Program-made: the position numbers and the translations under genes
Shown here: positions 8,262 to 34,175 of the stretch, in pieces
How positions within the stretch are numbered: position 1 is the stretch's first letter
Layout of the letters: every line of letters starts with the position of its first letter
From: Crocinitomicaceae bacterium
Lineage (GTDB): Bacteria > Bacteroidota > Bacteroidia > Flavobacteriales_D > Crocinitomicaceae
Reading direction: 5' to 3'
DNA: 44,576 nucleotides
Assembly: GCA_022447665.1 (NCBI GenBank)
Contig: JAKVAQ010000039.1
Span: forward strand, 1-44,576
The notes under the pieces: generated by a model
What the model was told of the DNA's origin: nothing
The model's input: only the letters and a program-made list of their open reading frames with translations
The model's database searches: none

Positions 8262-8849
8262 TTAAAAGTCTGCTTTATTCTTGGATATGAATGTATAAAG
8301 CAATTCAATTAAATCGTCAGGGTATTCGTAAAACTTAGAATCACATTCTTCCCATTTGTCCCACAGTTGATCCTCATGTTCCTCAAGAATATTTATTCTT
8401 TCTGTCCGATTTGAAGGGATAGTTTTATTCGGCAATATTGAATTTGCATCATTCATGATTTTTGCCATACTATCTGCTCCAATTGTTAACAGCGCCTCGT
8501 AAGTTTCTAAAGAGTAATCACCACTTGAGTTAGAATAGAATTGATGAAAACCACCGTTATTAACTTCTATTTCCAAATTTTCAATAAACAATACTGTTTT
8601 TTCAGATTCAGTCAATTTTGACAGGTCTTCGCCGTAATTAGTTTTCTCGTTGAGTTGTTCATCCAATTCGATAACCGCTTCGGTATGATCCTCCATTGCT
8701 AGGATTAATTCAATGCTCATGTTTTCAGATGTTTCTACATGATGATTTTCATCAATTATTTCAATGTTTTCTTCAGTGTCTTCAGAACATGAGTAAAAAG
8801 TCAATAAAACAAAAACGAGTGTATTGAAATATTTGAAGATTGACATCAT
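8262..8849 (-). CDS. DUF4375/DMP19-like protein with lipoprotein signal
   Basis: Signal peptide (FYSC-SEDTEE) and the NNGGFHQF motif that I recall as characteristic of the DMP19/DUF4375 family. Confidence 0.4.
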   Translation of the reverse strand: MMSIFKYFNTLVFVLLTFYSCSEDTEENIEIIDENHHVETSENMSIELILAMEDHTEAVIELDEQLNEKTNYGEDLSKLTESEKTVLFIENLEIEVNNGGFHQFYSNSSGDYSLETYEALLTIGADSMAKIMNDANSILPNKTIPSNRTERINILEEHEDQLWDKWEECDSKFYEYPDDLIELLYTFISKNKADF

Positions 8850-9321: not shown

Positions 9322-10011
9322 CTAAATTTCGAAATGCATACCGTCTTTCAGTAGCCGCTTGTATGTCTTTTTATTGAATTGAAATAAGTTGCCTGGGCGA
9401 CCAGCACCACTTGATTTAGCCTTTTCATCTAACTCATCCAGTATTCCTAAATGCATAACTTTTTTCTTAAAATTCCTGCGATCAATCGGTCGATCTAACA
9501 AAGTAGCGTAAAGGATTTCTAGATCCGAAAAAGGAAATTTCTTATCTAGAAGTTCAAAACCAATGGGTTCATAACTAATCTTACCTCTAAGCCTTTCAAT
9601 TGCGAGTTTTATGATCTTTTTATGATCAAACGCTAATTTAGGTAATGACTTTATGTTGAACCATTTTGCCTCTTCGGCATCAGTAGATGCTTTTAACTTT
9701 TCGAACTGGCTAGATTTAACAAGACCAAAGTAAGCTACAGTAACCACTCTACGTCTTGGATCACGCTCCGGTGAACCGAATGTATATAATTGCTCGAGGT
9801 AATTAATTTTTATGCCTGTTTCTTCTTCTAGTTCTCGCTCAACAGCGTCTTCTAAAGGTTCGTTATCATGAACAAATCCACCAGGAATAGCCCATTCACC
9901 TTTAAAGGGTTCATACTTCCTTTTTATCAGCAGTAGTGAAACACCTGAGTCCCTATTGTAACCAAAAACTATGGCATCAACGGCGACATGAATATTTTGT
10001 GTCATTTTCAC
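9322..10011 (-). CDS. nrtR: NrtR-family transcriptional regulator (Nudix ADP-ribose-binding domain plus C-terminal winged helix)
   Basis: Nudix box GEWAIPGGFV..EDAVERELEEETG in the N-terminal half; C-terminal winged-helix-like domain; divergently arranged relative to the NAD/ADP-ribose operon. Confidence 0.75.
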   Translation of the reverse strand: MKMTQNIHVAVDAIVFGYNRDSGVSLLLIKRKYEPFKGEWAIPGGFVHDNEPLEDAVERELEEETGIKINYLEQLYTFGSPERDPRRRVVTVAYFGLVKSSQFEKLKASTDAEEAKWFNIKSLPKLAFDHKKIIKLAIERLRGKISYEPIGFELLDKKFPFSDLEILYATLLDRPIDRRNFKKKVMHLGILDELDEKAKSSGAGRPGNLFQFNKKTYKRLLKDGMHFEI

Positions 10012-10103
10012 ACAATAAAGATACTCTTTTGTATTACTAAAGCCGAATTTTTAAATAAAAAAGTAATTTATTGAATTTTATAACACTGAAAATCAGTCAA
10101 CAA

Positions 10104-10185
10104 AATTAATATGTGTTAATTTAACGCAAATATATTTGGAGGTTAATTCTTTTTGAACTTATATTTGCGTTATTAATACACAAAT
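10104..10185. promoter_or_regulatory. candidate operator palindromes in the nrtR / NADAR-operon divergent region
   Basis: AAATTAAtatgtgTTAATTT (10104-10123), CAAATATATTTG (10127-10138), ATTTGCGT-N7-ACACAAAT (10163-10185). Confidence 0.4.
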
Positions 10186-10192
10186 AAAAGTC

Positions 10193-10759
10193 ATGGAATC
10201 GAAATATTCAATTGAATTACTTGTAGCTAAAAAAGAGCCCCATAAGTTTTTATTCTTTTGGGGCCATCAGCCAAGTCCTAAAGGAACTATTGGGAAGAGC
10301 TGCTTTAGCCAATGGTGGACGACTCCATTTGAAATTAGTAGTATCAAGTATAAGACTGCTGAGCATTTCATGATGGCAGAAAAAGCAAGATTATTTAATA
10401 ATCTAGAAATCGCTGAACAAATAATTTCATGCTCTTCTCCGGCAGAGGCAAAAAAACTAGGAAGAGAGGTGAAGGGTTTTGAGCAGGAAGTTTGGGAAGC
10501 ACATCGCTTTAGTATAGTGAAAACTGGGAATTATCATAAGTTCAATCAAAATCAAAAACTAAAGGAGTTTTTACTAAATACTAAAACACGAGTATTAGTT
10601 GAAGCTAGTCCAGTTGACCCTATTTGGGGTATAGGCATGGCAGAAGACAACCCCAAGGTATTTAATCCTGAAAACTGGAGAGGACTCAATTTATTAGGAT
10701 TTGCGTTAATGGAAGTTCGGGACGAATTAACAAAAGAAAATGAAAGCAAAACTATTTAG
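10193..10759 (+). CDS. NADAR (YbiA-like) domain protein
   Basis: FFWGHQPS..SQWW..F..AEHFMMAEKARLF...WGIG signature of the NADAR/DUF1768 family. Confidence 0.75.
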   Translation: MESKYSIELLVAKKEPHKFLFFWGHQPSPKGTIGKSCFSQWWTTPFEISSIKYKTAEHFMMAEKARLFNNLEIAEQIISCSSPAEAKKLGREVKGFEQEVWEAHRFSIVKTGNYHKFNQNQKLKEFLLNTKTRVLVEASPVDPIWGIGMAEDNPKVFNPENWRGLNLLGFALMEVRDELTKENESKTI

Positions 10760-11147
10760 GCCAATTGGAATTGGTGAGTATAAGCTTATCCGTGAAAGTG
10801 ATTATAAAGCTTTTCCTCCTAGACTTGAATGGCAACCGATCTTTTACCCTGTTACAAATCAGGCTTATGCCGAGTAAATAGCGAATAATTGGAATACACA
10901 AGATGAATTTTCTGGGTATTGCGGTATCGTTACTGCTTTTGAAGTCAGGTCTGATTTTCTAAGTAAGTATCCCTTGAAAAATGTAGGTGATAAAATGCAT
11001 AATGAACTATGGATACCTGCAGAGGATCTTGAGGATTTTAACACAAATATTATAGGCAAGATTCAAGTAGTCAACGCCTTTTTTGGCGATAAATTCTCGG
11101 TTAAAGAAAATACAATTGTCGAATCATATTACAAGATATATACATGA
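10740..11147 (+). pseudogene. hypothetical ORF of about 135 codons interrupted by one in-frame TAA at 10875-10877
   Basis: Continuous coding frame 10740-11147 (..PVTNQAYAE * IANNWNTQDEF..KIYT) with ATGA-type overlaps to both neighbours; a single in-frame stop. Confidence 0.4.
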
Positions 11148-11653
11148 AACTAGAATTAATAAAAGGTGACATTACAACAATAAAAGTTGATGCCATTGTC
11201 AATGCAGCTAACTCATCACTTCTCGGGGGTGGCGGAGTAGACGGCGCCATTCACAGAAAAGGGGGGGAGCAAATTCTGGAAGATTGTCAAGCAATACGTC
11301 AAAAGCAGGGTAAATGTGATACTGGACAAGCTGTAATAACAAGAGCAGGAAATCTTCCGTCTAATTATGTAATTCATACTGTCGGTCCTGTCTACAATAA
11401 AGGTGGTGTTCTTAAAGAACAACAATTAGCAAACTGTTACAAGAACTCTATTAATCTGCTAATTAAGAACGGACTAAAAACGATAGCTTTTCCTAATATT
11501 AGTACTGGGATTTACGGGTTTCCTAAAAAAAGAGCTGCAGAAATAAGTGTGAAAACAATCCTCTGTTTGGCCCCGTCAGAACAACCTGAAAAAGTCATAT
11601 TCGTTTGTTTTGATGACCAAAACTACAGGATATATGAAGAATTATTGAAATGA
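11144..11653 (+). CDS. Macro domain protein (ADP-ribose / O-acetyl-ADP-ribose processing, YmdB-like)
   Basis: MKLELIKGDITTIKVDAIVNAANSSLLGGGGVDGAIHRKGG... classic Macro domain start and glycine-rich loop. Confidence 0.85.
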   Translation: MKLELIKGDITTIKVDAIVNAANSSLLGGGGVDGAIHRKGGEQILEDCQAIRQKQGKCDTGQAVITRAGNLPSNYVIHTVGPVYNKGGVLKEQQLANCYKNSINLLIKNGLKTIAFPNISTGIYGFPKKRAAEISVKTILCLAPSEQPEKVIFVCFDDQNYRIYEELLK

Positions 11654-12285
11654 AAGTACAGATAAAAAAATACAAAGAACAACTAAAAGAGTGGCCTAAC
11701 GAAGGGTACCATATAATGGCTCAATATGATGATGAAAAAATCATTGTTTATCAATCCTACAGACCAGAAATAGGAAATTTTGCGGTAGAAAATCAATTTT
11801 TCGGAGGAGCATTTAGTCTTGACCGAATGACATGGATTAAACCTAACTTTCTATGGATGATGTACCGAAATGGTTGGGGAACAAAGCAAGGACAAGAGGT
11901 TGTTCTTGCAATACACCTTAAACTAGATGCTTTTGAACGCTACTTGAAAGAAGCAATTCATTCCAGCTACAAAAGCGACTTATATGCGTCTCATGAAGAT
12001 TGGAAACAGAAGTTGACTACATCGTCTGTGCGGTTGCAATGGGATCCAGATCATGATCCATATGGTGCTAAACTTAAAAGAAGAGCTATACAAATTGGTA
12101 TAAGAAATGAAGAAGTTATTGGTTATTCAAAAAATGATATTCTAGCAATTGATGACATTTCTGCATTCGTAAAAGAACAACATGTTTATGTAAAAGAAAG
12201 AAATCTTGGTCAACTGTGGACTCCTGAGGAGAGACCTTTGGTTTTTAAAGATGAAAGACTCAATAAAAAGTTGAATTTACAATGA
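11650..12285 (+). CDS. DUF4291-like protein (NAD/ADP-ribose pathway-associated)
   Basis: Operon context and a conserved W/F-rich core; my recollection is that this family co-occurs with Macro and KptA. Confidence 0.4.
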   Translation: MKVQIKKYKEQLKEWPNEGYHIMAQYDDEKIIVYQSYRPEIGNFAVENQFFGGAFSLDRMTWIKPNFLWMMYRNGWGTKQGQEVVLAIHLKLDAFERYLKEAIHSSYKSDLYASHEDWKQKLTTSSVRLQWDPDHDPYGAKLKRRAIQIGIRNEEVIGYSKNDILAIDDISAFVKEQHVYVKERNLGQLWTPEERPLVFKDERLNKKLNLQ

Positions 12286-12818
12286 ACACAAAAAGAATAA
12301 GTAAACTAATGAGCCTTATACTCAGGCATAATCCTGGTGTTATCAATGCCTCACTAGACGAAAATGGCTGGCTTGATGTGGATGACTTGATTCTGGGGAT
12401 AAAATCAAAAGGATTAGAAATTACACGAGAAATTTTAGAGAAAGTCGTTGAAACAAATAATAAAAAGCGATTCTCATTCAGTTTGGACGGAACAAAAATA
12501 AGGGCGAATCAGGGACATTCAATAGATGTTGATATTGAATTGAAACCTACTTCTCCTCCTGAATTTTTATACCATGGTACTGTAGAAAAATATTTAGATG
12601 CTATTAAGTCTGAAGGTTTGAAAAAAATGAATAGACAACATGTGCATTTAAGTAAAGACATAGACACCGCTGAAAACGTAGGAGGTAGACGTGGAAAACC
12701 CGTAATATTGACTGTAAATACTGGCCAAATGGAAGATGCTGGTTACACATTCTATCTTTCAGAAAATAAGGTATGGCTTACAGATCATGTTCCTCTTGAA
12801 TTTATAAATTTTCAATAA
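12282..12818 (+). CDS. kptA: RNA 2'-phosphotransferase KptA/Tpt1
   Basis: LSKLMSLILRHNPG..GW..VDDL.., IRANQGHS, HGT, HVHLS, GRRG motifs of the Tpt1/KptA family. Confidence 0.85.
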   Translation: MNTKRISKLMSLILRHNPGVINASLDENGWLDVDDLILGIKSKGLEITREILEKVVETNNKKRFSFSLDGTKIRANQGHSIDVDIELKPTSPPEFLYHGTVEKYLDAIKSEGLKKMNRQHVHLSKDIDTAENVGGRRGKPVILTVNTGQMEDAGYTFYLSENKVWLTDHVPLEFINFQ

Positions 12819-13369
12819 TGAATAAAAAAGTAATAACCGAAGAAATATTTGAAATTGAGAACTTCCTTACTCCAATTGAGTGTGACGAATTTCTAGATCG
12901 CTTTGAAAATGAAACCTTTGAAGAAGCAAAGGTGAATATTGACGGTAACCAGATAATGCGAAAGAGTATAAGAAATAATGATAGAATTTTATTTTTTGAC
13001 AATAATCTTGCGGAGGAAATGTGGTCAAAAGTATCATCTTTTGTTCCCGAAGAGCTAGGCTTGTATAAATCTATTGGGCTTAACGAGATGTTTAGGGTAT
13101 ACAAATACTCTGCAGGGCAGCGCTTCAAAATGCACATGGATGGCAGCTATAAAAGGAATGAGCGCGAACAGAGTTTTTATTCCTTTTTGATATATCTTAA
13201 TGAGGATTTTAGCGGAGGAGAAACAGAGTTTAGAAAATTAGGTATCGTTGAACCTAAAAAAGGCAATGCTTTGGTTTTTAGACATCATAATCGACATGAA
13301 GGAAAGGAAGTAAAATCTGGTAAAAAGTATGTCTTGCGAACAGACATTATGTTCAAGATAAAAGAATGA
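12818..13369 (+). CDS. 2OG-Fe(II) oxygenase superfamily protein (prolyl-4-hydroxylase-like)
   Basis: H-x-D (KMHMDGS) and distal His (RHHNRHEG) with an R/K motif near the C-terminus. Confidence 0.6.
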   Translation: MNKKVITEEIFEIENFLTPIECDEFLDRFENETFEEAKVNIDGNQIMRKSIRNNDRILFFDNNLAEEMWSKVSSFVPEELGLYKSIGLNEMFRVYKYSAGQRFKMHMDGSYKRNEREQSFYSFLIYLNEDFSGGETEFRKLGIVEPKKGNALVFRHHNRHEGKEVKSGKKYVLRTDIMFKIKE

Positions 13370-14097
13370 AAAGAACTCTTGTATTTGGAGATATTCATGG
13401 CGGCCTAAAAGCATTGAATCAAGTTTTAAATCGCGCGAAAGTTTCAGAGAATGATACCCTAATATTTCTTGGAGATTATGTGGATGGGTGGAGTGAATCG
13501 AGCAGTGTTATTTCACGCCTTATCGAACTTGAAAAAAGCAATAATTGTGTCTTTATTAAAGGTAATCACGACCAATGGTGTGAAGACTGGCTGCGTTCAT
13601 CTAATGGGAACAGTACTTGGCTATTTCACGGAGGAGAATCAACCGTAAACAGTTATAAAGGCTACAATAACGAGGAGCTAAGAACACATTTGAACTTCTT
13701 TGAGTTAATGCGAAACTATTATGTGGATAATAAAAACCGACTTTTTATTCATGCAGGGTTTGCATCAATGCATGGAGTGGAAAAAGAACCTTATCCATCT
13801 AATTATTCTTGGGATAGAACATTATGGGAGATGGCATACAGCTTAAAAGATTTGGAACTTGACGAATCATCCCTCCACTACCCCAAGCGATTTAAACATT
13901 ACAGTGAAATCTATATTGGTCATACCCCCACAACTGACTATAACGTTGCCACCCCAATCATTGCTCAGAAATTAGTAAATGTTGATACGGGCGCTGCATT
14001 TAAAGGTAAACTCACTGCTTTAGACGTTGATTCAAAAGTGTTTTGGCAAAGTGATCCTCTCCCTGAACTGTATCCCAATGAAAAAGGAAGAAATTAA
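13366..14097 (+). CDS. calcineurin-like metallophosphoesterase (ApaH/Ser-Thr phosphatase-like)
   Basis: GDIHG...GDYVDGW...GNHD motifs. Confidence 0.7.
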   Translation: MKRTLVFGDIHGGLKALNQVLNRAKVSENDTLIFLGDYVDGWSESSSVISRLIELEKSNNCVFIKGNHDQWCEDWLRSSNGNSTWLFHGGESTVNSYKGYNNEELRTHLNFFELMRNYYVDNKNRLFIHAGFASMHGVEKEPYPSNYSWDRTLWEMAYSLKDLELDESSLHYPKRFKHYSEIYIGHTPTTDYNVATPIIAQKLVNVDTGAAFKGKLTALDVDSKVFWQSDPLPELYPNEKGRN

Positions 14098-14123
14098 TTC
14101 ATCAAGATTATTACTAACGCATC

Positions 14124-14573
14124 ATGATCTTCACATCTGAAATTCCCTTATCCGATATAGACACCAATAAAAAGCTTATTTTCCTTGCGGGAAGCATTGA
14201 TCTAGAATTACCAGGGAACTGGAGAAAACAAGTATCATCTCTTCTTGAAGATCAGTTTAATTATTTTGATCCTACTAGTCAGAATCATGGTGAAATGGAC
14301 CATGAAGCATGGAATACACATATTAATTGGGAACTTGAAGCTATGAAAATGGCAGATATAGTATTTATGAACCTACTCCCAAATGCAAAATCTCCAATCT
14401 CTTTAATTGAATTAGGCTTGAACTCATTGAACGGAAAGTTAGTCGTTGTTTGTCCTAAAGAATTCTATAAGAATCAATATATTCAAGCGTTATGCGCATA
14501 CCACTCCACCCCTATTTTTCAAACATTAAAAGAAGGTGTTCAACATGTTAAAAACGTAATTAGTGTAAAATAA
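14124..14573 (+). CDS. nucleoside 2-deoxyribosyltransferase-like (NDT/SLOG fold) protein
   Basis: LAGSI N-terminal motif and a distal acidic residue in a pattern typical of the NDT-like fold; operon context. Confidence 0.45.
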   Translation: MIFTSEIPLSDIDTNKKLIFLAGSIDLELPGNWRKQVSSLLEDQFNYFDPTSQNHGEMDHEAWNTHINWELEAMKMADIVFMNLLPNAKSPISLIELGLNSLNGKLVVVCPKEFYKNQYIQALCAYHSTPIFQTLKEGVQHVKNVISVK

Positions 14574-14634
14574 ACACAAATTATTTGTGTTATTCTAATA
14601 ACTTCTTTTATATTTGCGTATATATTACACAAAT
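14574..14634. promoter_or_regulatory. candidate operator palindromes upstream of nadV
   Basis: ACACAAAT-T-ATTTGTGT (14574-14590) and ATTTGCGT-N7-ACACAAAT (14612-14634), the same architecture as 10163-10185. Confidence 0.45.
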
Positions 14635-14646
14635 AAAATTTACAAT

Positions 14647-16101
14647 ATGAATGCTTTATTATTAACAGACGGTTATAAAACAGGACATCATCAGCAATAC
14701 CCTCAAGGAACGGAGGAAGTTTATTCGAACTGGACACCACGAAGTAATAAATATGCACCAAAGGGATGCGATAAAGTAGTTTCGTTTGGACAACAGTATG
14801 TAATGAAATGGTTGCACAATTATTTTCATCAAAACTTCTTCAGGAAGCCTAAAGCAGAAGTATGCAATGAAATAAGGGAAGAGCTTTCATTATACTTAAA
14901 TACAGACTATGATGTAAGTCATTTTGAAGAACTTCACGATTTGGGTTATCTGCCTATTAGAGTTAAATCTTTACCTGAAGGAACAGAAGTGAATATTCGT
15001 GTACCTATGCTGACAGTTGTAAATACTAGAAAGGAATTCTATTGGGTAACAAATTTTCTTGAAACTATTCTTTCAACAATGCTTTGGCAACCTATGACTT
15101 CGGCTACAATTGCACTAAATTACAAACGAATTTTCACTAAGTGGGCAAAGCAAACAGACGTTGAAAATATCGGATTTGTTGACTTTCAAGGACATGATTT
15201 TAGTATGCGAGGAATGGGTGGCCTGCAAAGTGCTCAAAGCTCAGGGATGGGTCATGGAGCCGTTTTTTTAGGTAGTGACACACTTCCTGCCATTGCTGGC
15301 TTGCGCAGGTATTATAACGCTCAAGATTTTGTATTAGGCTCTGTCAACGCTACAGAGCACAGTGTAATGTGTGCAGGCACTAAAAATGATGAAATAGGCA
15401 CATTTAAAGAACTAATGAAAACCTACCCTACTGGAATTCTTTCAGTTGTTAGTGACACATGGGACCTTTGGAAAGTAATTACTGAGTATTTACCTAAACT
15501 TAGGGAAGATGTTCTAGGGAGAGACGGAAAATTAGTGATACGTCCTGATAGCGGTGATCCTGTTGATATTATTTGCGGTGAAGATCGCAAACTCGGTGGA
15601 AACTCCCCTCAAGACAAAGGTGTGATTGAATTAATATGGGAGCTTTTTGGAGGAACTACTAATCCTCAGGGATACAAGGTACTCAACCAACATATTGGCG
15701 CAATTTACGGAGATAGCATAACTACAGAAAGAGCAGAGCAAATTTGTCAACGTTTACATGAAAAGGGATTCGCCTCAACAAATGTTGTGCTTGGTATTGG
15801 AAGCTTTACATATCAGTTTAATACAAGAGATACGTTTGGATTTGCTATGAAAGCAACTAGTGTTGTTGTGAATGGAGAACGTCGAGAGATATTTAAAGAT
15901 CCTATTACAGATGATGGTGTAAAGAAAAGTGCAAAAGGTTTGGTGCGAGTAGATGAATTAGATGGTGAATATATTCTTGTAGATCAAGTATCTGAAGAAG
16001 AAGAAAAAAAAGGTTCTTTAGAAATAATCTATGAAAACGGGGAATTCAAGAAAAATGTAGAAATGAATGAAATAAGAGCTCGTATCAATGCTAACGTATA
16101 A
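14647..16101 (+). CDS. nadV: nicotinamide phosphoribosyltransferase (NadV/NAMPT family)
   Basis: N-terminal LLLTDGYKTGHHQQYP and overall length; start moved to the internal ATG at 14647 so that the palindromic operator lies upstream of the start. Confidence 0.8.
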   Translation: MNALLLTDGYKTGHHQQYPQGTEEVYSNWTPRSNKYAPKGCDKVVSFGQQYVMKWLHNYFHQNFFRKPKAEVCNEIREELSLYLNTDYDVSHFEELHDLGYLPIRVKSLPEGTEVNIRVPMLTVVNTRKEFYWVTNFLETILSTMLWQPMTSATIALNYKRIFTKWAKQTDVENIGFVDFQGHDFSMRGMGGLQSAQSSGMGHGAVFLGSDTLPAIAGLRRYYNAQDFVLGSVNATEHSVMCAGTKNDEIGTFKELMKTYPTGILSVVSDTWDLWKVITEYLPKLREDVLGRDGKLVIRPDSGDPVDIICGEDRKLGGNSPQDKGVIELIWELFGGTTNPQGYKVLNQHIGAIYGDSITTERAEQICQRLHEKGFASTNVVLGIGSFTYQFNTRDTFGFAMKATSVVVNGERREIFKDPITDDGVKKSAKGLVRVDELDGEYILVDQVSEEEEKKGSLEIIYENGEFKKNVEMNEIRARINANV

Positions 16102-16111
16102 ACTTTGAAAA

Positions 16112-16873
16112 ATGGATTACAAACTGAAAAAATTCAACGACGGCCAGGTATCTGTCTCAGGGATAAAGGAAGGTGATCTTGAAATAAAAATAAGAGGCAA
16201 CTCTTACGAAGATCTGTTCACTATTGCATCAATAAAGGAGGCATGGGATGCAATGAATTCAATCAATAAGAAAGCTGTTTCTATTTTAACTATCTGCTGT
16301 TTAATTGGTCAACGTTCGGATAGAAGATTTAATAAAGGCGAATCTTTTGATTTAAAAGTCATTGCTGATTTTATAAATCGAATGAAATTCGATCGTGTCC
16401 GTATTCTGCATCCTCATAGCCCCATTACATTAGCACTGATTAACAATTCGGAAAAAATATCACATTCAGAGTATGTAAAAAAAGCTTACGAGGCCATTGG
16501 AGCTCCTGTTTTAGTGAGTCCCGATGCCGGTGCTTATAAAGTAACCCACGAGATTGCAGGACTTTTAGGGGCTGATTTAATCCCTTCGAATAAGGTACGA
16601 GTGAATGGTGTTCCTGAAATAAGTATTCAAGGTGATGTAAGCGGAGAGCAGTGTTTAATTGTAGATGATTTGGCAGATGGAGGGAGAACATTTAAAAATT
16701 TGGCAGTTGCTCTTAAAAAACAAGGAGCCACTGCGGTTTATTTATATGTTACACATGCACAATTCAACTACGGATTTGACGAGCTAAAGGAGTCAATTGA
16801 TCATATCTATTGCACTAACAGCTATAAGGAAATCGATAATGAATTGGTAACACAGTTTAAAGTTATAGATTAG
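16112..16873 (+). CDS. ribose-phosphate pyrophosphokinase (Prs)-like phosphoribosyltransferase
   Basis: GQRSDRR, VSPDAGA and PRPP-binding CLIVDDLADGGRTF motifs; shorter than canonical Prs; 10 nt downstream of nadV. Confidence 0.65.
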   Translation: MDYKLKKFNDGQVSVSGIKEGDLEIKIRGNSYEDLFTIASIKEAWDAMNSINKKAVSILTICCLIGQRSDRRFNKGESFDLKVIADFINRMKFDRVRILHPHSPITLALINNSEKISHSEYVKKAYEAIGAPVLVSPDAGAYKVTHEIAGLLGADLIPSNKVRVNGVPEISIQGDVSGEQCLIVDDLADGGRTFKNLAVALKKQGATAVYLYVTHAQFNYGFDELKESIDHIYCTNSYKEIDNELVTQFKVID

Positions 16874-17153: not shown

Positions 17154-18173
17154 TTAGAAATACTCTATTGTTCTTGTTTCTTGAGTTACTAGTGTGTTGG
17201 AAACGAATGTAAGTTTAGATGTCCAATTACCGTATTGGTCATAAACATAAGCATAAGTGTATTTTCTTTTGAATTTCTTTTCATTCAAGAAGTTGTTTTT
17301 GGGTGGTTTATACTTTACCAAACTGGTTAACTCATTGCCTTCATCATTATAAGTAGACTTAATTAAAGAGATAAACTTTCCTTCGGGAGAAGTTTTTAAA
17401 ACTTTAATGGGCTGATTCCAATCATTGTAAGTATAATATTTGACGTAACTTTCGTCTGTTCTTGGAGAGTCTGAATTACTCTCATGCTTAACTCTAATAA
17501 AGTTTCCATTATCGTCTTTATTGTAAAGAGATCTTCCACTCCAAGACGTATCTAAAAACTCTTCTTTAATCAATAATCCATTTTCATTGTATGTAAATAT
17601 TCTATGAGTTGATTTAGTAGGACTTATTTCAATATCTAATATGACTTCACCGTCTGAATTGAAACGGGTCGTATGATAATGTATGTTTGAATTACTTGAA
17701 ATTATAGTCGAATCTGAACGCTCTAGTCTATTGGGATCATAATAAAAGCTAGTTTCACTAATTAGACCTTTTGTACCATGTTCATAAAAATGAATTGATT
17801 GTTTGTCGACTTGATTTAACTGATTATACTCATACTTAAATTCTCGAGATGTATCAGATTCTCCTTGTATTGAAAACTTGGTAGCATACATTGTGCCTGT
17901 TGAATCAAAAACACGACAGTATTTATTTCTAACAACACCTAAAGTTTTAACGGTAAGACCAAACCAATAGCCTTGAGGATTATAATCGAATACATGTGTT
18001 AGCGAATAGGAAATATCACCTTCATGAAACATAACTTTCTTATATATCAATTTTGAAACATTCCCACCTAATTCGCAGGTATCAGATAAGCCATCTTGGG
18101 ATCTGCCTTTAGATGGGGCGAATGTCATGATCGCACAGAACAGATAAATGTAAAACTGAGTCTTTGGAGTCAT
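17154..18173 (-). CDS. secreted YD-repeat-like protein
   Basis: Signal peptide; repeated Y-x-Y-N/D-E-N/G-G-x-L units. Confidence 0.45.
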   Translation of the reverse strand: MTPKTQFYIYLFCAIMTFAPSKGRSQDGLSDTCELGGNVSKLIYKKVMFHEGDISYSLTHVFDYNPQGYWFGLTVKTLGVVRNKYCRVFDSTGTMYATKFSIQGESDTSREFKYEYNQLNQVDKQSIHFYEHGTKGLISETSFYYDPNRLERSDSTIISSNSNIHYHTTRFNSDGEVILDIEISPTKSTHRIFTYNENGLLIKEEFLDTSWSGRSLYNKDDNGNFIRVKHESNSDSPRTDESYVKYYTYNDWNQPIKVLKTSPEGKFISLIKSTYNDEGNELTSLVKYKPPKNNFLNEKKFKRKYTYAYVYDQYGNWTSKLTFVSNTLVTQETRTIEYF

Positions 18174-18354
18174 TTTAAAATGAACTTCTGGTTTAATGTA
18201 AAGATAAATCTAAATTTATAGTTCTTTGAATTGCTGACAATTATACTTGACGTTGAAACAGTAGAGATTTCATGCATCTACTATGTGTGGCTAATTTCTG
18301 GTCTTAAACCGTTATTTCTAAATTCCTTAACTTTAGTTTATTATAGCACTATTA

Positions 18355-18678
18355 ATGAAACCTATAATTCTCCTGGATGTTTTTCCACCTAACCCCATTG
18401 AAGAAGGTGATGGACTTACTAATATTGATGTAATTACCTTCTTGTTAATAGCAATATTTATTGTTGTAATCTATTTATTATTTAGAAGAAGAAAGATTGC
18501 TGGATCTGCACAGAATAGTTTAAACAATGATGTTCTAGGTCAAGAAAGATCTATGCCTTTATCAAATACTTCAAAGCCTCCGTTTACGAACTTTTCTAAT
18601 AAGGATGCTTATTTATGGATTGTTTTAGCTCTGTTCGTTTTAATTGCTCTTTTTACGATTAAGAAATGGATTCCATAA
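18355..18678 (+). CDS. membrane protein, hypothetical
   Basis: Two transmembrane helices. Confidence 0.35.
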   Translation: MKPIILLDVFPPNPIEEGDGLTNIDVITFLLIAIFIVVIYLLFRRRKIAGSAQNSLNNDVLGQERSMPLSNTSKPPFTNFSNKDAYLWIVLALFVLIALFTIKKWIP

Positions 18679-19112
18679 ATAGACTATTAATCCTTCTTTT
18701 CTTGGCTTCTATTTACTCTTGTAAATCTACTCCGGATCTAGAGGGGAAATGGACGTTAATTTCTGCCAACTTTGAACCCATTGGTTTGACTCCAGAAATA
18801 AATAATGTTTCGTTAGGGAGTATATTTGAATTTAAGGATGGTTTATTATCGGTTTCTGATAATGGAATGATTTCACAATCCGAGTACGATGACGGACAAT
18901 TTAACATTGATTCGATTTTAGTGTTTAATTCTAGTTCTCAGCTAGGCACATCATCTTCCTTTAAGATGGTTGAATATGAGAACGAAATTCTAACCTTTGA
19001 GTTAGTTTTGAGCAACGAATATTTGGCCTTGCCAGTACCAAACAGTGCAATTGAAGAGTGGAAAGATCGACTTAAAAACGGGTATCGATTTGGTTTAAAA
19101 AGAACTGAATAA
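18666..19112 (+). CDS. lipoprotein, hypothetical
   Basis: Signal peptide plus YSC-KSTPD lipobox. Confidence 0.45.
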   Translation: MDSINRLLILLFLASIYSCKSTPDLEGKWTLISANFEPIGLTPEINNVSLGSIFEFKDGLLSVSDNGMISQSEYDDGQFNIDSILVFNSSSQLGTSSSFKMVEYENEILTFELVLSNEYLALPVPNSAIEEWKDRLKNGYRFGLKRTE

Positions 19113-19113
19113 A

Positions 19114-19611
19114 ATGGGGTTCTATTTAAATTCTGAGCCAAATAAGACTGATAGTTATCTATACCTTGGATATCTTATCATTTCCTTAGTAGTATTTGGT
19201 ATATTATTCTTAGTGAACTCTGAAGAAATCTACAAGGTACTATTAGGTTATACTCTTCTAACTCAAATGACTATATACGGAGTGTTTTATAGATCATTAA
19301 GATATTTAAAATTTAACCTTTACTGGTTATTAATTGCCTTTCTTCACGCCGTCGCATATTATTTTTTAAAAGACGATCCCTATTTGCAATCAGACAAAAT
19401 AGACGTAACAATCGACCTCTTGTTCACAGGTGCATTTGTTCTTTTATTTAACCTATTGAGACTAGTCACTGTATTGATAATGAGATCTGAGTTTGAAACG
19501 AATTTCGCTTATGGTTCCTCCTTATTTGACGAGAGAAAATTAAATGTAGGAGAATGGATTGCATTTGTTGTATATTTTAGTTGCTTTTTAGTCTTCCAAA
19601 TCTTAACCTGA
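19114..19611 (+). CDS. membrane protein, hypothetical
   Basis: Four transmembrane helices. Confidence 0.45.
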   Translation: MGFYLNSEPNKTDSYLYLGYLIISLVVFGILFLVNSEEIYKVLLGYTLLTQMTIYGVFYRSLRYLKFNLYWLLIAFLHAVAYYFLKDDPYLQSDKIDVTIDLLFTGAFVLLFNLLRLVTVLIMRSEFETNFAYGSSLFDERKLNVGEWIAFVVYFSCFLVFQILT

Positions 19612-19704
19612 ATTCAGGAACGAAGTTATACTACATCCTCTAAACTCCACTATTTTAGTATCTTCATCTTGTAACTATTCTTTCGGATTTATTCATAAAG
19701 AGTC

Positions 19705-20202
19705 ATGAAAAAAACAGACCAAACGATTCATAAAATTTGTATTCGAGGTATAAAGCGCTCATTAGTAAAAGACGCTGTCTTTAAGACTTCCAGTATGTAT
19801 GAAGTTGAAGGTGAATATGACTCTGTTTTTCAAAAATTCGGAATAAAGAAATATGAAAATGAATTACCTGTTTGTTCTTGCTATTTACAATCAAACAGAT
19901 GGAGCTTATTGACTACCCAAAGATTAATTACTTGTAATAATGACAATCTTACTGAAGCCAACATGGATTTCGCAAAGGTTGAAAATTACGGTGATTTCAA
20001 GGGGTACGAAGAACGGGAATATACTTTGGGGCATGTGAATTTTGATAACGGAGATTCACATGAATATTTTATTGAAATCGGAAAGGCATCAATGGTTATG
20101 GTTCAAGGGGTTAAATTCAGGATATTGATTCAGCCGAATTCTGAAGAAGAGAATAATAGTTTGCTGAAAGCGTGGACAAGAAGAGATCTTCGTAACAAAT
20201 AG
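19705..20202 (+). CDS. hypothetical protein
   Basis: ORF track. Confidence 0.4.
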   Translation: MKKTDQTIHKICIRGIKRSLVKDAVFKTSSMYEVEGEYDSVFQKFGIKKYENELPVCSCYLQSNRWSLLTTQRLITCNNDNLTEANMDFAKVENYGDFKGYEEREYTLGHVNFDNGDSHEYFIEIGKASMVMVQGVKFRILIQPNSEEENNSLLKAWTRRDLRNK

Positions 20203-20207
20203 ATCAT

Positions 20208-21335
20208 ATGAATTTTGAATTAAGCGATAAACTAACGGGGTTAATTGAAAATAATCAATTAGATGAGGCCATAGAGATTGCAGAAACGGAACTTAAGAAT
20301 ATTCCTCAAACAAATTTTCATTCAATTTTAGGAAAAGACTTGCTTCACCTAGAGAATAATTTGGCAAAGTTTATTGATGATTTTTATGTTGACACTCTAG
20401 AAGTTTTAAACCAGCGTAAAGGATTCTTTCAAAGTTTATTTGGTTCGAAAGTTAAATCTAAACCCATGGCGTTTTATTGTGAGATGAATGGATTTACAAT
20501 TAATTATGATCGGTGGTTTATTGATTTATTTGCCTACAGGACTTATGAGGAAGGTAATAGCTGGGATTGGTTATCTGATTTTTATGATCATACCGCAACA
20601 GGACTTACAATCACCGGGTTTGAGGACATACAAAATGTTTTTAGGGATGTTCACGAAAACGAATTGTTCCAAGATTTAAACATGAAAGCCGCCTATGAAA
20701 TCACCGAGCTAATTGTTATTCTCCGTCTTCAAGAATTATTTCGTGAAACTTATAAGAATTTATCGCGCGGATGGGCGCTAATACCGATTTTTGTTACCGC
20801 TCATGATTATGAAATGATTTATCGTGTAACAAGTTCAAAAGAACAATCTGAAGATGAGTTTTGGACAGTTAAATATGGGGAATGTGCTCCATTAACCGAT
20901 GATATGGTTTTTCGCGCAGAGAGAATATTAGGAGTAAAGTTTCCCTCAAGACTTATTGAATTGTTAAAGATTCAAAATGGAGGATATATAAATAATTACG
21001 GTTACAAAATGAATGAACCTACCTCTTGGTCAGAAACACATGTTCCCTTCGATGAGTTATATGGGTTGGATCCAGACCTGAAAACGCCATCTGTTTTCAA
21101 TATTATGGACGTTACATATCTGACAAAAGAATGGGGATTTCCCGAAGGACTAATTCCTTTATCCGGAGATGGTCACTGGTTTATTGCTTTGGATTACAGG
21201 AAAAGTGAAATTCCCCAGGTGAGATGGATAGATACTGAATGCGACCAGGACATTCATGTTGCAGACTCTTTTGACGAATTCATAGATAATCTATTAACGC
21301 AAGAACAAATTGATGAACTTGAGAATTTTGAATAA
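20208..21335 (+). CDS. SMI1/KNR4 (SUKH superfamily) domain protein, immunity-protein-like
   Basis: C-terminal region ..ILGVKFPSRLIELLKIQNGGYI..FDELYGLD.. matches the SUKH/SMI1-KNR4 core. Confidence 0.55.
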   Translation: MNFELSDKLTGLIENNQLDEAIEIAETELKNIPQTNFHSILGKDLLHLENNLAKFIDDFYVDTLEVLNQRKGFFQSLFGSKVKSKPMAFYCEMNGFTINYDRWFIDLFAYRTYEEGNSWDWLSDFYDHTATGLTITGFEDIQNVFRDVHENELFQDLNMKAAYEITELIVILRLQELFRETYKNLSRGWALIPIFVTAHDYEMIYRVTSSKEQSEDEFWTVKYGECAPLTDDMVFRAERILGVKFPSRLIELLKIQNGGYINNYGYKMNEPTSWSETHVPFDELYGLDPDLKTPSVFNIMDVTYLTKEWGFPEGLIPLSGDGHWFIALDYRKSEIPQVRWIDTECDQDIHVADSFDEFIDNLLTQEQIDELENFE

Positions 21336-21378
21336 TCAACTTAAAATCCAAGTTGTATTTGACTTACAATTACGCGAC

Positions 21379-21858
21379 ATGAATAGATTTACGCCTTTTA
21401 TTTTAGTATTTATTTCTGTGAGTTGCATCAATTTAGTAAATGAGGAAACTTCACAGATAGGCAATCTAGATCCGATGTGCTTAGAGGATTCTGCATGGAC
21501 AAAGATTTGTCAAGAACATTCAATTGAGAAAATATCTGACCCAGATTATTTAATGGGTCTAGAATCAATTAATAACCACTGGTTAAGCCCGGATTACGTG
21601 CTTTATTTTGACGAAGAACCTAAGGAAATTATTGGTTGTGATTGGTACGGTGTGCGAATTGTATATAATAAGAATATTTCATCTAATACTCTAACCGGGT
21701 TATCTCCTCAATTAGGTAATGATGAGCAAAAGAGAATTCGTAATAGGGTTATGAGAGAGCTAATTAAATATCAATGCGCGGAAGGACAGTTACAGATGTT
21801 AAGCGATATGAGTAAAGAGGTGCCATTTGCAGATTCTCATATCGATTATCCAAAGTAA
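21379..21858 (+). CDS. lipoprotein, hypothetical
   Basis: Internal Met start gives a signal peptide ending VSC. Confidence 0.4.
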   Translation: MNRFTPFILVFISVSCINLVNEETSQIGNLDPMCLEDSAWTKICQEHSIEKISDPDYLMGLESINNHWLSPDYVLYFDEEPKEIIGCDWYGVRIVYNKNISSNTLTGLSPQLGNDEQKRIRNRVMRELIKYQCAEGQLQMLSDMSKEVPFADSHIDYPK

Positions 21859-21878
21859 AAATCTGAAAAGAAATAAGT

Positions 21879-22451
21879 TTAATCATCTAAAATTTCCTTT
21901 GATTTCCCCATTTGTTTTTTTCTATCATTCATAATGAAGTTAACCAAGAATAATACATTGAATGGTATTAACCAGACAAAGAATTCGGCAATTTCCATGT
22001 TTTGTATGAAGTTGCCAAACCATAATCCCGAATTGACTATTATCGTGAATGTAGCATAAAATAGTAGTGAAATAGATTTGTTAGAGGGTTTTGAATAAAA
22101 GGTAGAAGCATACATAACGGTAACCACATAGTCTATATGATTTAATAGCAATGGATCGAATAGGTATTCATATTCAGTTATTCGATAAAAGTATTGGTAG
22201 GATAGCAAGAAAGACATACCAAAATGGAATAGAACTATTATACTCGGTAGAATAAACTTTTTTCTGTAGAAATATATACAGAGCAATAATCCGGTTAAAA
22301 TCGTACTAGAAAATTCAATACTGTAAAATGTAAGGACGGGAAGATCATTTATATTTGATTGGATAAAACCGTAATTATGGCATAATAGAGTGTATCGCAA
22401 AACCATTATCGCGATTAATCCAATGATTATAACAAGTCTAATATTCCTCAT
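21879..22451 (-). CDS. membrane protein, hypothetical
   Basis: Five to six transmembrane helices. Confidence 0.45.
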   Translation of the reverse strand: MRNIRLVIIIGLIAIMVLRYTLLCHNYGFIQSNINDLPVLTFYSIEFSSTILTGLLLCIYFYRKKFILPSIIVLFHFGMSFLLSYQYFYRITEYEYLFDPLLLNHIDYVVTVMYASTFYSKPSNKSISLLFYATFTIIVNSGLWFGNFIQNMEIAEFFVWLIPFNVLFLVNFIMNDRKKQMGKSKEILDD

Positions 22452-22516
22452 TGAGAATCTTAAAAAGTAATTTGAGCATTGTTACTTAAAAATTTCAAAA
22501 GTGATGTTTTAATAAA

Positions 22517-22966
22517 TCATCTTTCATAATCTTTAAACTCGGGTCGTTTTCTTGACTGCCCATAATCAAGTCCCGAATCTATTAGTTCAAAATCAAAATC
22601 TCTCGTAAACTTAAATTTGTTTTCTGGTAAGATTGCGACGAAAATCATCATTGCAGCCAACATCGAAGCTAAAGTAATGAGAGAAATCGTTACCATATAG
22701 TGCAGCTTTATTCTAACAACGTACCTATGGAATAAATAAACGAGTACAAACCATACCCCGTAATAGAAAAGTAGATCAAAGATTAGTTCTAAAACAAATA
22801 TCTGTAGTGACATTGAAGTGTGAAACCCCGGACAATTGAAGGGCAAAGGAAATCCAGACATTTCAATATCCCAGCCATCAATGACCGTCACATACCACCA
22901 TTTTGTGATAAAAAAGAATGAAATCACGGTTAAGGGAAGAACTAACTGCCAAGAAAGCTTTTTCAT
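22517..22966 (-). CDS. membrane protein, hypothetical
   Basis: Transmembrane helices. Confidence 0.45.
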   Translation of the reverse strand: MKKLSWQLVLPLTVISFFFITKWWYVTVIDGWDIEMSGFPLPFNCPGFHTSMSLQIFVLELIFDLLFYYGVWFVLVYLFHRYVVRIKLHYMVTISLITLASMLAAMMIFVAILPENKFKFTRDFDFELIDSGLDYGQSRKRPEFKDYER

Positions 22967-23009
22967 GGGAACGCTTTTTAAACATGAAAGTGCAGCAAAA
23001 CAACCATAC

Positions 23010-23387: not shown

Positions 23388-23476
23388 ATTCCTTTTGAAT
23401 CTTTCAGACCTAATTTATCCTTGGTTATTTCTAATATAGTGGAATATTTTCAGCGTTTCTCTATATTTAGTTCGAA

Positions 23477-23692: not shown

Positions 23693-23710
23693 ATTTGTGA
23701 AATTCTAAGC

Positions 23711-24406: not shown

Positions 24407-24413
24407 ATAGCAG

Positions 24414-25049: not shown

Positions 25050-25132
25050 CATTATAAGAATAACCTGGAGCTGCGAATGAAATACCCTAAACGGAATATC
25101 TAAAACAAATTCTGAGACCCGATCTTGGTTCT

Positions 25133-34169: not shown

Positions 34170-34175
34170 ACTATA

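Follow-up and report, generated by a model that had tools for sequence, protein, structure and literature searches.

A bacterial NARP1 gene pair and a variable cassette of ADP-ribose enzymes in a predicted NrtR regulon of a Crocinitomicaceae bacterium

We analysed a stretch of 44,576 nucleotides from a marine Crocinitomicaceae bacterium of the Flavobacteriales (contig JAKVAQ010000039.1 of assembly GCA_022447665.1), called the window hereafter, which carries at positions 9,322 to 16,873 an island headed by the gene of an NrtR-type regulator and ended by two adjacent genes annotated as NadV / nicotinate phosphoribosyltransferase and ribose-phosphate pyrophosphokinase (Prs). Judged by motif, profile, tree and contact residues, the 'NadV' is a Namat and the short 'Prs' is an Adps, and the pair is therefore a bacterial NARP1, the NAD reconstitution pathway described in phages. 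The island very probably rebuilds NAD+ directly from ADP-ribose (ADPR) and nicotinamide by the NARP1 route. As a whole, it is in our opinion a rather likely case of a chromosomal regulon, repressed by NrtR and inducible by ADPR, in which a NARP1 core is joined to a cassette that consumes NAD or frees ADPR, the loop being closed by NARP1.

A preliminary description, made from the letters and the open reading frames (ORFs) of this DNA, had proposed NrtR-type control of the operon and a NARP-like return of nicotinamide and ADPR to NAD+, and it had left undecided whether the Prs-like protein was a canonical phosphoribosyl pyrophosphate (PRPP) synthetase or an ADPR-pyrophosphate synthetase. Both proposals gained support from the results presented here, and the choice was settled in favour of Adps by phylogenetic placement, the protein grouping with phage Adps and outside canonical Prs.

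The Namat-Adps pair and its NrtR-type control

The Prs-like protein scored 95.6 bits on the Prs profile TIGR01251, the cut-off of which is 113. The Adps of SPbetaL1, FADO, ICP1 and a Felixounavirus scored 106, 96.5, 98 and 122.6 bits, respectively, and the Prs of E. coli and Bacteroides 422.7 and 356.4 bits. The window protein has 253 aa compared with about 315 in canonical Prs, lacking some 30 N-terminal and 15-20 C-terminal residues of Prs as the phage Adps do, and it shares the derived traits of the latter: PHSPITLALIN (derived form PHSxxxxALIN) is found where Prs has LHAxQIQGFFD (canonical signature HxxQIQGFFD), KVR (KxR) where Prs has KRR and, in the pyrophosphate (PP) loop, DDLADGGRTF (DDxxDGGRTF) where Prs has DDxxDTGGT, DGGRT thus standing at the place of DTGGT. 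In Adps, Lys185 is catalytic, F18, R87, F92, H121, D161, D212 and D213 contact ADPR, and D216 and F221 belong to the PP loop (PMC13586617). All the ADPR/ATP-contact and catalytic residues are kept in the window protein (F8, R68, F73, H102, D138, K161, D185, D186, D189 and F194), and its PP loop reads ADGGRTF, as compared with CDGGRTF in the Felixounavirus Adps, whereas Prs carry Thr at 217 and Leu or Ile at 221.

A HMMER search returned 7769 relatives, and the best 150 of these 7769 were almost all 240-300 aa long, which is an Adps-like length. A neighbour-joining (NJ) tree with Kimura-corrected distances and 200 bootstraps was built from 79 sequences (the window protein, two relatives, four phage Adps, five canonical Prs from five phyla, one PRK07199-type Prs and 66 representatives). 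With the sampling centred on the query in this way, canonical Prs split from the window protein, the phage Adps and all other sequences in 200/200 bootstraps, and the window Adps formed a branch separate from the phage Adps, to which it is 34-42% identical. According to Osterman et al. (2024 preprint), Adps are set apart from canonical Prs as a clade of their own and are encoded no more than ten genes away from a Namat gene; in the window, the tree split is accompanied by a Namat gene located 10 bp upstream. A Prs-like protein of a Sphingobium plasmid, encoded beside thymidine phosphorylase, was considered and rejected, as it belongs to a different Prs subfamily (PRK07199), and it served as extra outgroup only.

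The window Namat scored 546 bits to PDB entries 9W5X/9W5W, which are the SPbetaL1 Namat according to the structure paper, compared with 206-219 bits to Nampts (219 for Xanthomonas and about 210 for human). Its identity was 53% to the SPbetaL1 Namat and 47% to the stand-alone NadV of H. ducreyi pNAD1. The published Namat signature (SCH motif) is present exactly: it reads GSFTYQFNTRD in the window, GSFTYQYNTRD in the Namat of SPbetaL1 and FADO and GSYTYQYMTRD in the Felixounavirus (Bas63-like) Namat, whereas the corresponding motif is GAQTYQRNTRD in the H. ducreyi NadV, which is a true Nampt, and GGALLQKVDRD in the Xanthomonas Nampt. This motif was kept in all 39 Namat homologues of the surveyed loci. 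For the selectivity-clamp loop (β1-β2), the published rule asks for Arg, Lys or Tyr as third residue, or else for a residue able to stack as the fourth; with the loop bounds read from the alignment only, the window sequence (...PRSNKYAPKG...) aligned with that of SPbetaL1 (...PRTSRV--ED...) would have Lys where SPbetaL1 has its stacking Arg, and Tyr next to it, which would agree with this rule.

In relatives, NARP1 converts ADPR and ATP into ADP-ribose pyrophosphate (ADPR-PP), which reacts with nicotinamide to give NAD+ (Osterman et al. 2024 preprint; PMC13586617). From the sequences, we infer that the window Adps makes ADPR-PP from ADPR and ATP, and that the window Namat makes NAD+ from ADPR-PP and nicotinamide. 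The labels 'ribose-phosphate pyrophosphokinase' and 'nicotinate phosphoribosyltransferase' are thus probably wrong for the Flavobacteriales pair.

The regulator, whose start was called at ATG 10005, has an N-terminal Nudix-like domain and a C-terminal winged helix according to Pfam. Known NrtR operators are 21-bp palindromes with a GT-N7-AC core, and tandem sites bind the Shewanella NrtR (Rodionov et al. 2008, PMC2330246). When the pattern TTGYGT-N7-ACRCAA was searched over the whole window allowing one mismatch, five sites with the published core were found against 0.38 expected, and none of 100 shuffles used as control reached five. Three copies of the 19-bp palindrome lie in the nrtR-NADAR intergenic region and the other two upstream of Namat (Table 1). 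The copy over the nrtR start codon implies autoregulation. The spacing of 54 bp between operators 2 and 3 was also found in other loci; the motif was present in 54 of 66 loci, typically paired 53-54 bp apart directly upstream of Namat, as well as in the nrtR-Adps-Namat locus of Persicobacter (Cytophagales).

At both tandem pairs of the window, a TATATTTG box begins 5 nt ahead of the proximal operator; we take it to be the Bacteroidetes -7 box, the promoter consensus being TAnnTTTG. The five operators define two predicted promoters, one for the cassette and an internal one for Namat-Adps, so that the pair would keep a tandem operator of its own. The two proximal promoter regions were near-identical when compared by eye, which suggests that insertion of the cassette between nrtR and Namat went along with a duplication of the promoter-operator unit. 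The start of Namat was placed at ATG 14647, which gives 484 aa as in relatives; the TTG at 14614 chosen by the gene caller falls inside operator 5. A scan of positions 9000-17400 for σ70-type promoters and terminators gave 26 promoters and 6 terminators compared with 30.4 and 4.0 in shuffled sequence, the σ70 model not being applicable to Bacteroidota.

Release of NrtR from DNA by ADPR was shown only for the Shewanella and Synechocystis proteins (PMC2330246), and by analogy with these the window NrtR would respond to ADPR. Its Nudix box GFVHDNEPLEDAVERELEEETGI (NrtR residues 44-66), as read from the translation, keeps the full catalytic signature GX5EX7REUXEEXGU intact; the window NrtR may therefore still hydrolyse ADPR, thereby limiting its own induction.

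The cassette, its gene X and related loci

The ORF positions of the preliminary description were borne out (Table 1), and its family labels for ten genes all exceeded the Pfam gathering score in hidden Markov model (HMM) searches, the gene called DUF4291-like proving to be a full member of that family. NCBIfam equivalog cut-offs were exceeded by KptA, Macro and the Nampt/Namat family (NF006629: 551.6 vs 405). The ten named genes stood; the count did not, because an eleventh gene, X, sits in the 385-bp 'gap' between NADAR and Macro. Similarly, the tight ATGA overlaps that had been described for most junctions were confirmed as 4-nt overlaps at four of them (X/Macro, Macro/DUF4291, DUF4291/KptA and oxygenase/phosphoesterase); the overlap is 1 nt between KptA and the 2-oxoglutarate (2OG) oxygenase and 20 nt between NADAR and X, and the final three junctions are short gaps.

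Table 1. Positions of the island genes, the predicted operators and neighbouring features in the window
Feature	Position	Strand	Remarks
nrtR	9322..10005	-	Pfam NUDIX 81 bits and NrtR_WHD 70 bits; 227 aa from ATG 10005
NADAR (YbiA-like) ADP-ribosyl N-glycohydrolase	10193..10759	+	Pfam NADAR 190 bits; TIGR02464 170 vs cut-off 73.7
Gene X, pseudogene, predicted ADP-ribosyltransferase fold, 135 codons	10740..11147	+	TAA at 10875-10877 (codon 46)
Macro, MacroD/YmdB type	11144..11653	+	Pfam Macro 164 bits; NF001664 217.8 vs cut-off 200
DUF4291, predicted atypical ADP-ribosyltransferase-like	11650..12285	+	Pfam DUF4291 217 bits
KptA/Tpt1 RNA 2'-phosphotransferase	12282..12818	+	PTS_2-RNA 172 bits; NF002014 256.6 vs cut-off 239
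2OG-Fe(II) oxygenase, prolyl-4-hydroxylase-like	12818..13369	+	2OG-FeII_Oxy_3 52 bits; Pox_C4_C10 37 bits
Calcineurin-like metallophosphoesterase, Pnkp / lambda-phosphatase type	13366..14097	+	Metallophos 63 bits
NDT-like (nucleoside 2-deoxyribosyltransferase-like, PF15891)	14124..14573	+	Nuc_deoxyri_tr2 77 bits
Namat, annotated NadV / nicotinate phosphoribosyltransferase	14647..16101	+	NAPRTase 139 and NAMPT_N 38 bits; 484 aa
Adps, annotated ribose-phosphate pyrophosphokinase	16112..16873	+	Pribosyl_synth 38 / Pribosyltran 35 bits; 253 aa
Predicted NrtR operator 1 TTGTGTCATTTTCACACAA	9997..10015	.	Exact pattern match; overlaps nrtR start codon
Predicted NrtR operator 2 ATGTGTTAATTTAACGCAA	10111..10129	.	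One mismatch; upstream member of tandem pair at NADAR promoter
Predicted NrtR operator 3 TTGCGTTATTAATACACAA	10165..10183	.	Overlaps -7-type box TATATTTG at 10160-10167
Predicted NrtR operator 4 TAGTGTAAAATAAACACAA	14561..14579	.	One mismatch; overlaps NDT-like stop codon; 53 bp from operator 5
Predicted NrtR operator 5 TTGCGTATATATTACACAA	14614..14632	.	Exact match; overlaps -7-type box TATATTTG at 14609-14616
tRNA array (ten genes)	2167..3464	+	Ser-TGA, Ser-GCT, Cys, Tyr, Pro, Glu, Gln, Leu-TAG, Leu-TAA, His
SPFH/Band-7 protein	4403..5503		43-44% identical homologues beside the island in two other genomes
DMP19	8262..8849		
ORFan-rich region	17154..44135		About 27 kb; about 37 ORFs of at least 100 aa
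SMI1/SUKH	20208..21335		
PF25302 'NADase_transloc' match	23711..24406		Discoidin-type domain
DUF1493	25773..26186		

Homologous loci, which carry L numbers where they must be told apart, were compared with the window. When a single genome of each GTDB species was scanned, 58 loci came up. Almost all belong to Flavobacteriales genera (among them Maribacter, Aquimarina, Tenacibaculum, Polaribacter, Cellulophaga, Olleya, Dokdonia, Fluviicola and Crocinitomix); a Saprospiraceae bin and an Ekhidna bin also gave matches. Gene content was tabulated for the 41 loci flanked by 6 kb or more on either side: NrtR and Namat were each present in 39, and 20 loci had the core genes only. The commonest accessory gene of the core operon was NDT-like (15 loci), followed by NADAR (11), KptA (9), the phosphoesterase (9, seven of them next to KptA), a protein of about 330 aa (8), Macro (5), PARG (3), DUF4291 (3), the 2OG oxygenase (2) and X (1). 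The core proteins were 65-85% identical across families, and a block X-Macro-DUF4291-(PARG)-KptA-2OG-phosphoesterase was common to the window, L008 and L080. The island thus consists of a conserved core NrtR-Namat-Adps, present in about 40 Flavobacteriales genomes, and of a variable, mobile pool of ADP-ribose enzymes. The clustering of these genes is not due to chance; they are found grouped behind an NrtR gene in other, unrelated Bacteroidota genomes as well. The view that the cluster is not core metabolism of the lineage held for the eight accessory genes, which vary among genomes; the three-gene core is nonetheless widely conserved. Its Prs-like member is not the housekeeping enzyme.

Gene X is a single frame from ATG 10740 to TGA 11147 that is broken solely by the TAA listed in Table 1; its start overlaps the NADAR stop and its TGA the ATG of Macro. 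Database proteins of about 135 aa, 1291 in number, can be aligned over their whole length across this stop. The stop likely arose by a CAA to TAA change, because 11 of 12 sampled homologues carry Gln at that codon (the remaining one carries Lys). The same TAA was present in an independently assembled sample. X had no Pfam match even at E≤1. The AlphaFold model of a 68%-identical homologue (predicted local distance difference test, pLDDT, of 95) points to an ADP-ribosyltransferase (ART) fold resembling Rhs-toxin domains. The NCBI label of the 135-aa family, 'ADP-ribosylation/crystallin J1', is the name of the unrelated ARH glycohydrolase family and is probably wrong. X is followed by Macro in the window and in four other genomes, either with an overlap of 4-10 nt or with the Macro start 2 nt past the X stop, and in the other genomes it appears to be translationally coupled to Macro. 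Because of this constant adjacency, X-Macro looks like a writer-eraser pair of the DarT-DarG kind, an ART-fold protein (the fold being taken from the structure model) beside an ADP-ribosyl hydrolase gene, the writer of which would be dead in the window organism. NADAR was considered as the fixed partner of X, as in YbiA-YarT, and was rejected in favour of Macro.

KptA spends NAD+, the products being nicotinamide and ADP-ribose 1'',2''-cyclic phosphate, and we know of no established substrate of bacterial KptA. Its usual partner is the phosphoesterase, which lies at most 1.3 kb away in 7 of 9 loci; this protein matches the phosphatase region of TIGR04075 bacter_Pnkp (NCBIfam), and its nearest PDB entry is 4j6o, followed by lambda phosphatase. 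The nearest solved relatives of the 2OG oxygenase are the bacterial prolyl-4-hydroxylase (P4H) entries 3itq and 5hv0, and the nearest PDB entry of the NDT-like protein is 4mcj, which is uncharacterised. For DUF4291, an ART-like fold and NUDIX/Macro/KptA neighbourhoods have been reported (PMC12522546). Macro is predicted to be an O-acetyl-ADPR deacetylase or an ADP-ribosyl hydrolase. Its identification as the phage Adpp was rejected, since it is of the MacroD/YmdB type by NCBIfam, and a tblastn search with it of 50,697 phage records (E<1e-5) gave 12 matches, none of them in a phage named as a NARP1-AP carrier; it may still overlap functionally with Adpp. PADLOC gave no system-level defence match and recognised single domains only (NADAR to the candidate PDC-M42C, 2OG to a Cas-associated model).

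Other loci showed further gene combinations. The protein of about 330 aa, which has no Pfam match and is absent from the window, lies between Namat and Adps in Maribacter and Polaribacter or beside NADAR (L011, 8908-9990; L013, L019, L021, L024, L029; L008, 6952-7944; L007, 10426-11415). At positions 158-5375 and 7957-10004, L008 carries an Apyc1-like metallo-β-lactamase, a second weak Macro, SIR2 and a bacterial PARG; its island also has an NDT-LOG fusion and adjoins Vsr, a cytosine methylase (Dcm) and a GHKL ATPase, a setting like that of a defence island. In L007 (2.27-Mb contig), an RNA-repair set comprising a P-loop kinase (AAA_33/KTI12), an RNA ligase, a TPR protein, a PrfH-like release factor and RtcB follows directly after the island on the opposite strand (15576-20405). 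L080 (Flavobacterium artemisiae) has three ARH genes, PARG, a 275-aa Prs-like gene directly after nrtR and far from Namat, and an adenylosuccinate synthetase-like gene (6375-7457) between uncharacterised genes and X. An NrtR-headed operon on a Prevotella metagenome contig (L082, 8-8935) holds a radical-SAM gene, two NADAR, a GNAT acetyltransferase, ARH, DUF4291, two Macro, KptA and X; neither Namat nor Adps was found within the 12 kb examined, and in Bacteroidales the ADP-ribose cassette may thus occur independently of NARP1. On a plasmid-like replicon of Persicobacter (L079, 632 kb), the order at 7408-10443 is nrtR, tandem operators, Adps and Namat, as in phages. The Namat of L079 is 58% identical to that of the window and the Adps no more than 38%, so that the histories of the two genes seem to differ between Cytophagales and Flavobacteriales.

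Around the island, the window carries a ten-tRNA array, of which Rfam scored eight members, calling the first one tRNA-Sec-like. The two 'Leu' tRNAs have 75 and 70 nt, below the size of the long-variable-arm tRNA-Leu that is normal in bacteria. Part of the array was matched beside the island in the Saprospiraceae bin (L062), which together with Maribacter algarum (L033) also has the SPFH/Band-7 homologue there; save for this gene and the tRNA sequence, the island flanks had nothing in common with those in other genomes. In the window, about 3.8 kb of ORFans and the DMP19 gene separate SPFH from nrtR, which suggests an insertion between them. Almost all of the ORFs downstream of the island lack a Pfam or PHROG match, and no paralogues were found among these ORFans themselves; the exceptions are SMI1/SUKH, DUF1493 and a protein with a discoidin-type 'NADase_transloc' domain (PF25302), a match that was not counted as a link to NAD. 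About a quarter of these ORFs have lipoprotein-like N-termini, and the region looks like a variable one of orphan, immunity-type genes.

Proposed mechanism and alternative explanations

In the mechanism that we propose, NrtR would bind at three positions, namely its own start codon, the tandem pair at the cassette promoter and the tandem pair at the internal Namat-Adps promoter, and ADPR from NAD cleavage would release it. ADPR would then be both inducer and substrate, because the effector of NrtR is also what Adps pyrophosphorylates. KptA, DUF4291 and the now-dead X would be the NAD consumers that release nicotinamide; Macro, NADAR and the Pnkp-like phosphoesterase would return ADPR adducts and phosphates to free ADPR, NADAR and Macro acting on nucleic-acid or protein adducts. 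Adps would pyrophosphorylate free ADPR with ATP to ADPR-PP, and Namat would couple nicotinamide to the latter, so that, through cassette and NARP1 together, ADP-ribosylation or the removal of RNA 2'-phosphates would run as a cycle with zero net loss of NAD. ADPR-PP decays to an ADPR-cyclic-phosphate; by analogy with phosphoribosyl cyclic phosphate (PRcP), this product could be the 1'',2''-cyclic phosphate, the same compound that KptA yields, and the phosphoesterase and Macro could turn it into ADPR in steps, like Cpd1 and Poa1 of yeast. Feeder enzymes of phage NARP1 have been described, namely the Macro phosphatase of NARP1-AP (Osterman et al. 2026 preprint, 10.64898/2026.01.28.702374) and RyDEP, and the window island would be a bacterial, transcriptionally gated and much broader form of this feeder-plus-NARP1 idea. 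More tentatively, and with some doubt on our part, NARP1 might be an old bacterial pathway governed by NrtR rather than a phage-born one, closing a zero-net-loss NAD cycle in which KptA and two further ART-fold proteins, as endogenous enzymes acting on nucleic acids, are the spenders and the phosphoesterase, Macro and NADAR return every adduct to ADPR. If this were true, bacterial KptA and NARP1 would acquire a physiological context, and the classical proteobacterial nrtR-prs-nadV operons would also be NARP1.

Several points weigh against the regulon as we propose it. The salvage logic of the preliminary description applies to NARP1; it does not apply to KptA, DUF4291 and X, which are predicted NAD consumers or 'writers' rather than salvage enzymes and are left unexplained by a pure salvage scheme, as are the roles of the 2OG oxygenase and the NDT-like protein. 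X is a pseudogene in the window, so that part of the cassette is decaying, and the Macro is of the MacroD/YmdB type, not the Poa1p-like Adpp of phage NARP1-AP. NrtR scored 135.6 against a cut-off of 400 on the NCBIfam NrtR equivalog NF050029, which places it outside that specific orthologue group. The membership of Adps and Namat in their families is sequence-based only, and the large clade on the Adps side of the tree may be functionally mixed, because the sampling comprised the relatives of the query and five Prs. Finally, Namat reportedly keeps some activity with nicotinamide and PRPP in vitro, an observation that also favours the classical annotation.

By that annotation, a dedicated PRPP synthetase paralogue would feed PRPP to a NadV making nicotinamide mononucleotide (NMN), which is the 'salvage II plus PRPP synthesis' of Rodionov and the 2008 reading of the nrtR-prs-nadV operons (PMC2330246). 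The pair does match the Prs and NAPRTase/NAMPT profiles. We nevertheless consider this very improbable, since the Namat-specific adenine clamp is present here but not in the true, closely related NadV of H. ducreyi, the Prs-like protein falls below its family cut-off (95.6 vs 113), lacks T217, L/I221 and both termini and stands outside canonical Prs in every bootstrap replicate, and a Pfam scan of the island revealed no NMN adenylyltransferase. Even less credible, to the point of being nearly dismissible, is that a phage carries the island or a recent prophage brought it, so that a NARP1 operon serving counter-defence would have ended up in a bacterial bin: NARP1 occurs mainly in phages (Osterman et al. 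2024 preprint), and the contig has its tRNA array and many ORFans, but 20 large flanking ORFs gave no phage structural or replication matches, the Adps-like protein had no close relatives in 2.9 million viral contigs and branches apart from the phage Adps, the same nrtR-Namat-Adps unit occurs in megabase chromosomal contigs of isolates of many genera, and two other families likewise have the SPFH gene and tRNA sequence beside the island.

An inducible immunity against foreign ADP-ribosylation or NADases overlaps with the regulon that we propose and differs from it in its trigger, which would be an external conflict rather than the cell's own NAD turnover: free ADPR would signal attack, NrtR would turn on the erasers (NADAR and Macro, with PARG and ARH in relatives) to strip modifications, and NARP1 would refill NAD. 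Accessory genes vary among close relatives around a fixed core, a hallmark of the NrtR/WYL-regulated ARG-centred conflict systems (PMC9503650), SIR2 and the Apyc1-like hydrolase of L008 lie next to Vsr, Dcm and a GHKL ATPase, the window island itself is set among ORFans including SUKH/SMI1, DMP19 and DUF1493 immunity-type proteins, NADAR matches the PADLOC candidate-defence model, and a bacterial NARP1 expressed in E. coli neutralised an NADase system in published work. However, the identity of 65-85% of the core across families indicates purifying selection rather than an arms race, the cassette holds writers as well as erasers, unlike the 'eraser without coupled writer' template (PMC9503650), and no known defence system was matched as a whole by PADLOC, so that we hold immunity to be unlikely, though it deserves serious attention. 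The island could also be an RNA-repair operon, in which the phosphoesterase would open RNA 2',3'-cyclic phosphate ends, KptA would remove the 2'-phosphate at the cost of one NAD, NARP1 would merely repay this NAD, and NADAR and Macro would dispose of the ADP-ribose cyclic-phosphate by-product. The near-constant neighbourhood of KptA and the phosphoesterase, the closeness of the latter to the phosphatase module of bacterial Pnkp (solved structure and NCBIfam), the RtcB-PrfH-RNA ligase-kinase cluster adjoining the L007 island and the published KptA route for clearing 2'-phosphates in RNA repair are in line with it, and de Souza and Aravind reportedly gave an RNA-repair reading to YbiA-KptA neighbourhoods in 2012. 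But genes for an RNA ligase, a kinase or a nuclease are missing from the window island, this reading gives no role to X, DUF4291 and the 2OG oxygenase, and half of the loci have NARP1 without KptA, so that RNA repair cannot be the core function; we therefore judge it improbable.

Relation to known systems

A NADAR/KptA/NAMPT neighbourhood is said to have been described already by de Souza and Aravind in 2012. Also known before this analysis were the nrtR-prs-nadV operons (2008), NARP1 (2024), bacterial NARP1 (2026), NARP1 with Macro in phages (2026) and the ART-like character of DUF4291 (2025). In the literature searched, we found no mention of an explicit link between NrtR and NARP1, of the Bacteroidota operator with its duplicated promoter, of an ART fold in the 135-aa family and the association of this family with Macro, or of a survey of core versus cassette. 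Two recent papers call the physiological role of bacterial NARP1 unknown, and the present locus makes this question testable, related loci being found in the cultivable hosts Maribacter, Flavobacterium and Fluviicola. The 2008 NrtR paper (PMC2330246) left the co-regulated dedicated Prs paralogue unexplained, for which a 'Prs' using ADPR itself would be a simple answer, and the variable cassette gives bacterial KptA, DUF4291 and the 135-aa family a defined metabolic frame.

The closest counterpart is the NARP1 of phages Bas63, SPbetaL1 and FADO and of Paenibacillus foliorum (Osterman et al. 2024 preprint; PMC12774641; PMC13586617), with which the window pair shares the adjacent genes annotated as Prs and Nampt, the clamp motif, the Adps residues, the PP loop and the predicted chemistry. 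The order is Namat-Adps in the window and Adps-Namat in phages and Persicobacter; in contrast to phage NARP1, the window pair is chromosomal, 65-83% conserved across Flavobacteriales and embedded in an eleven-gene island under a dedicated repressor of the ADPR-sensing type with tandem operators. With the nrtR-prs-nadV regulon of Shewanella, Acinetobacter, Chromobacterium and Cytophaga hutchinsonii (PMC2330246), it has in common the Nudix-winged-helix regulator, tandem GT-N7-AC operators upstream of the prs/nadV pair and a second, non-housekeeping prs paralogue. That pair was read in 2008 as PRPP synthetase plus Nampt with the dedicated Prs unexplained, whereas the window pair tests as Adps plus Namat, which would explain why ADPR is the effector of NrtR, and the window adds the eight-gene cassette and the duplicated promoter-operator unit. 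The phage operon NARP1-AP, Adps-Adpp(Macro)-Namat (10.64898/2026.01.28.702374), likewise combines NARP1 with a Macro enzyme able to turn an ADP-ribose derivative into free ADPR; the window Macro is paired with an ART-fold gene instead of lying between Adps and Namat, and the window has many more 'feeder' candidates.

The NrtR/WYL-regulated ARG-centred systems, predicted to act against viral ADP-ribosylation (Iyer, Burroughs and Aravind 2022, PMC9503650), share with the island a Nudix-HTH sensor-repressor, variable erasers (Macro, NADAR) with calcineurin-like phosphatases, and the plan of a core plus accreted genes. Unlike them, the window lacks ARG/ARH, a chaperone and a restriction endonuclease (REase) effector, it has ART-fold writers, and its core is an NAD-rebuilding pair, not an eraser. 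In DarT-DarG and YbiA-YarT (Cihlova et al. 2024, PMC11125620), a small ART-fold gene is similarly coupled to an ADP-ribosyl hydrolase, and a YbiA-like NADAR stands directly upstream of X in the window. However, the constant partner of X is the downstream Macro, not NADAR, X is inactivated by its stop, and the likeness is one of fold and gene context. In yeast, the by-product of tRNA splicing is dealt with by Tpt1, Cpd1 and Poa1: Tpt1 makes ADP-ribose 1'',2''-cyclic phosphate, and Cpd1 and Poa1 turn it into ADPR. The window likewise encodes a KptA/Tpt1 enzyme together with a phosphoesterase and a Macro that could take this compound to ADPR in steps; in contrast to the yeast proteins, its metallophosphoesterase is not a 2H enzyme and its Macro is not Poa1p-like, and it has the NARP1 recycling that yeast lacks.

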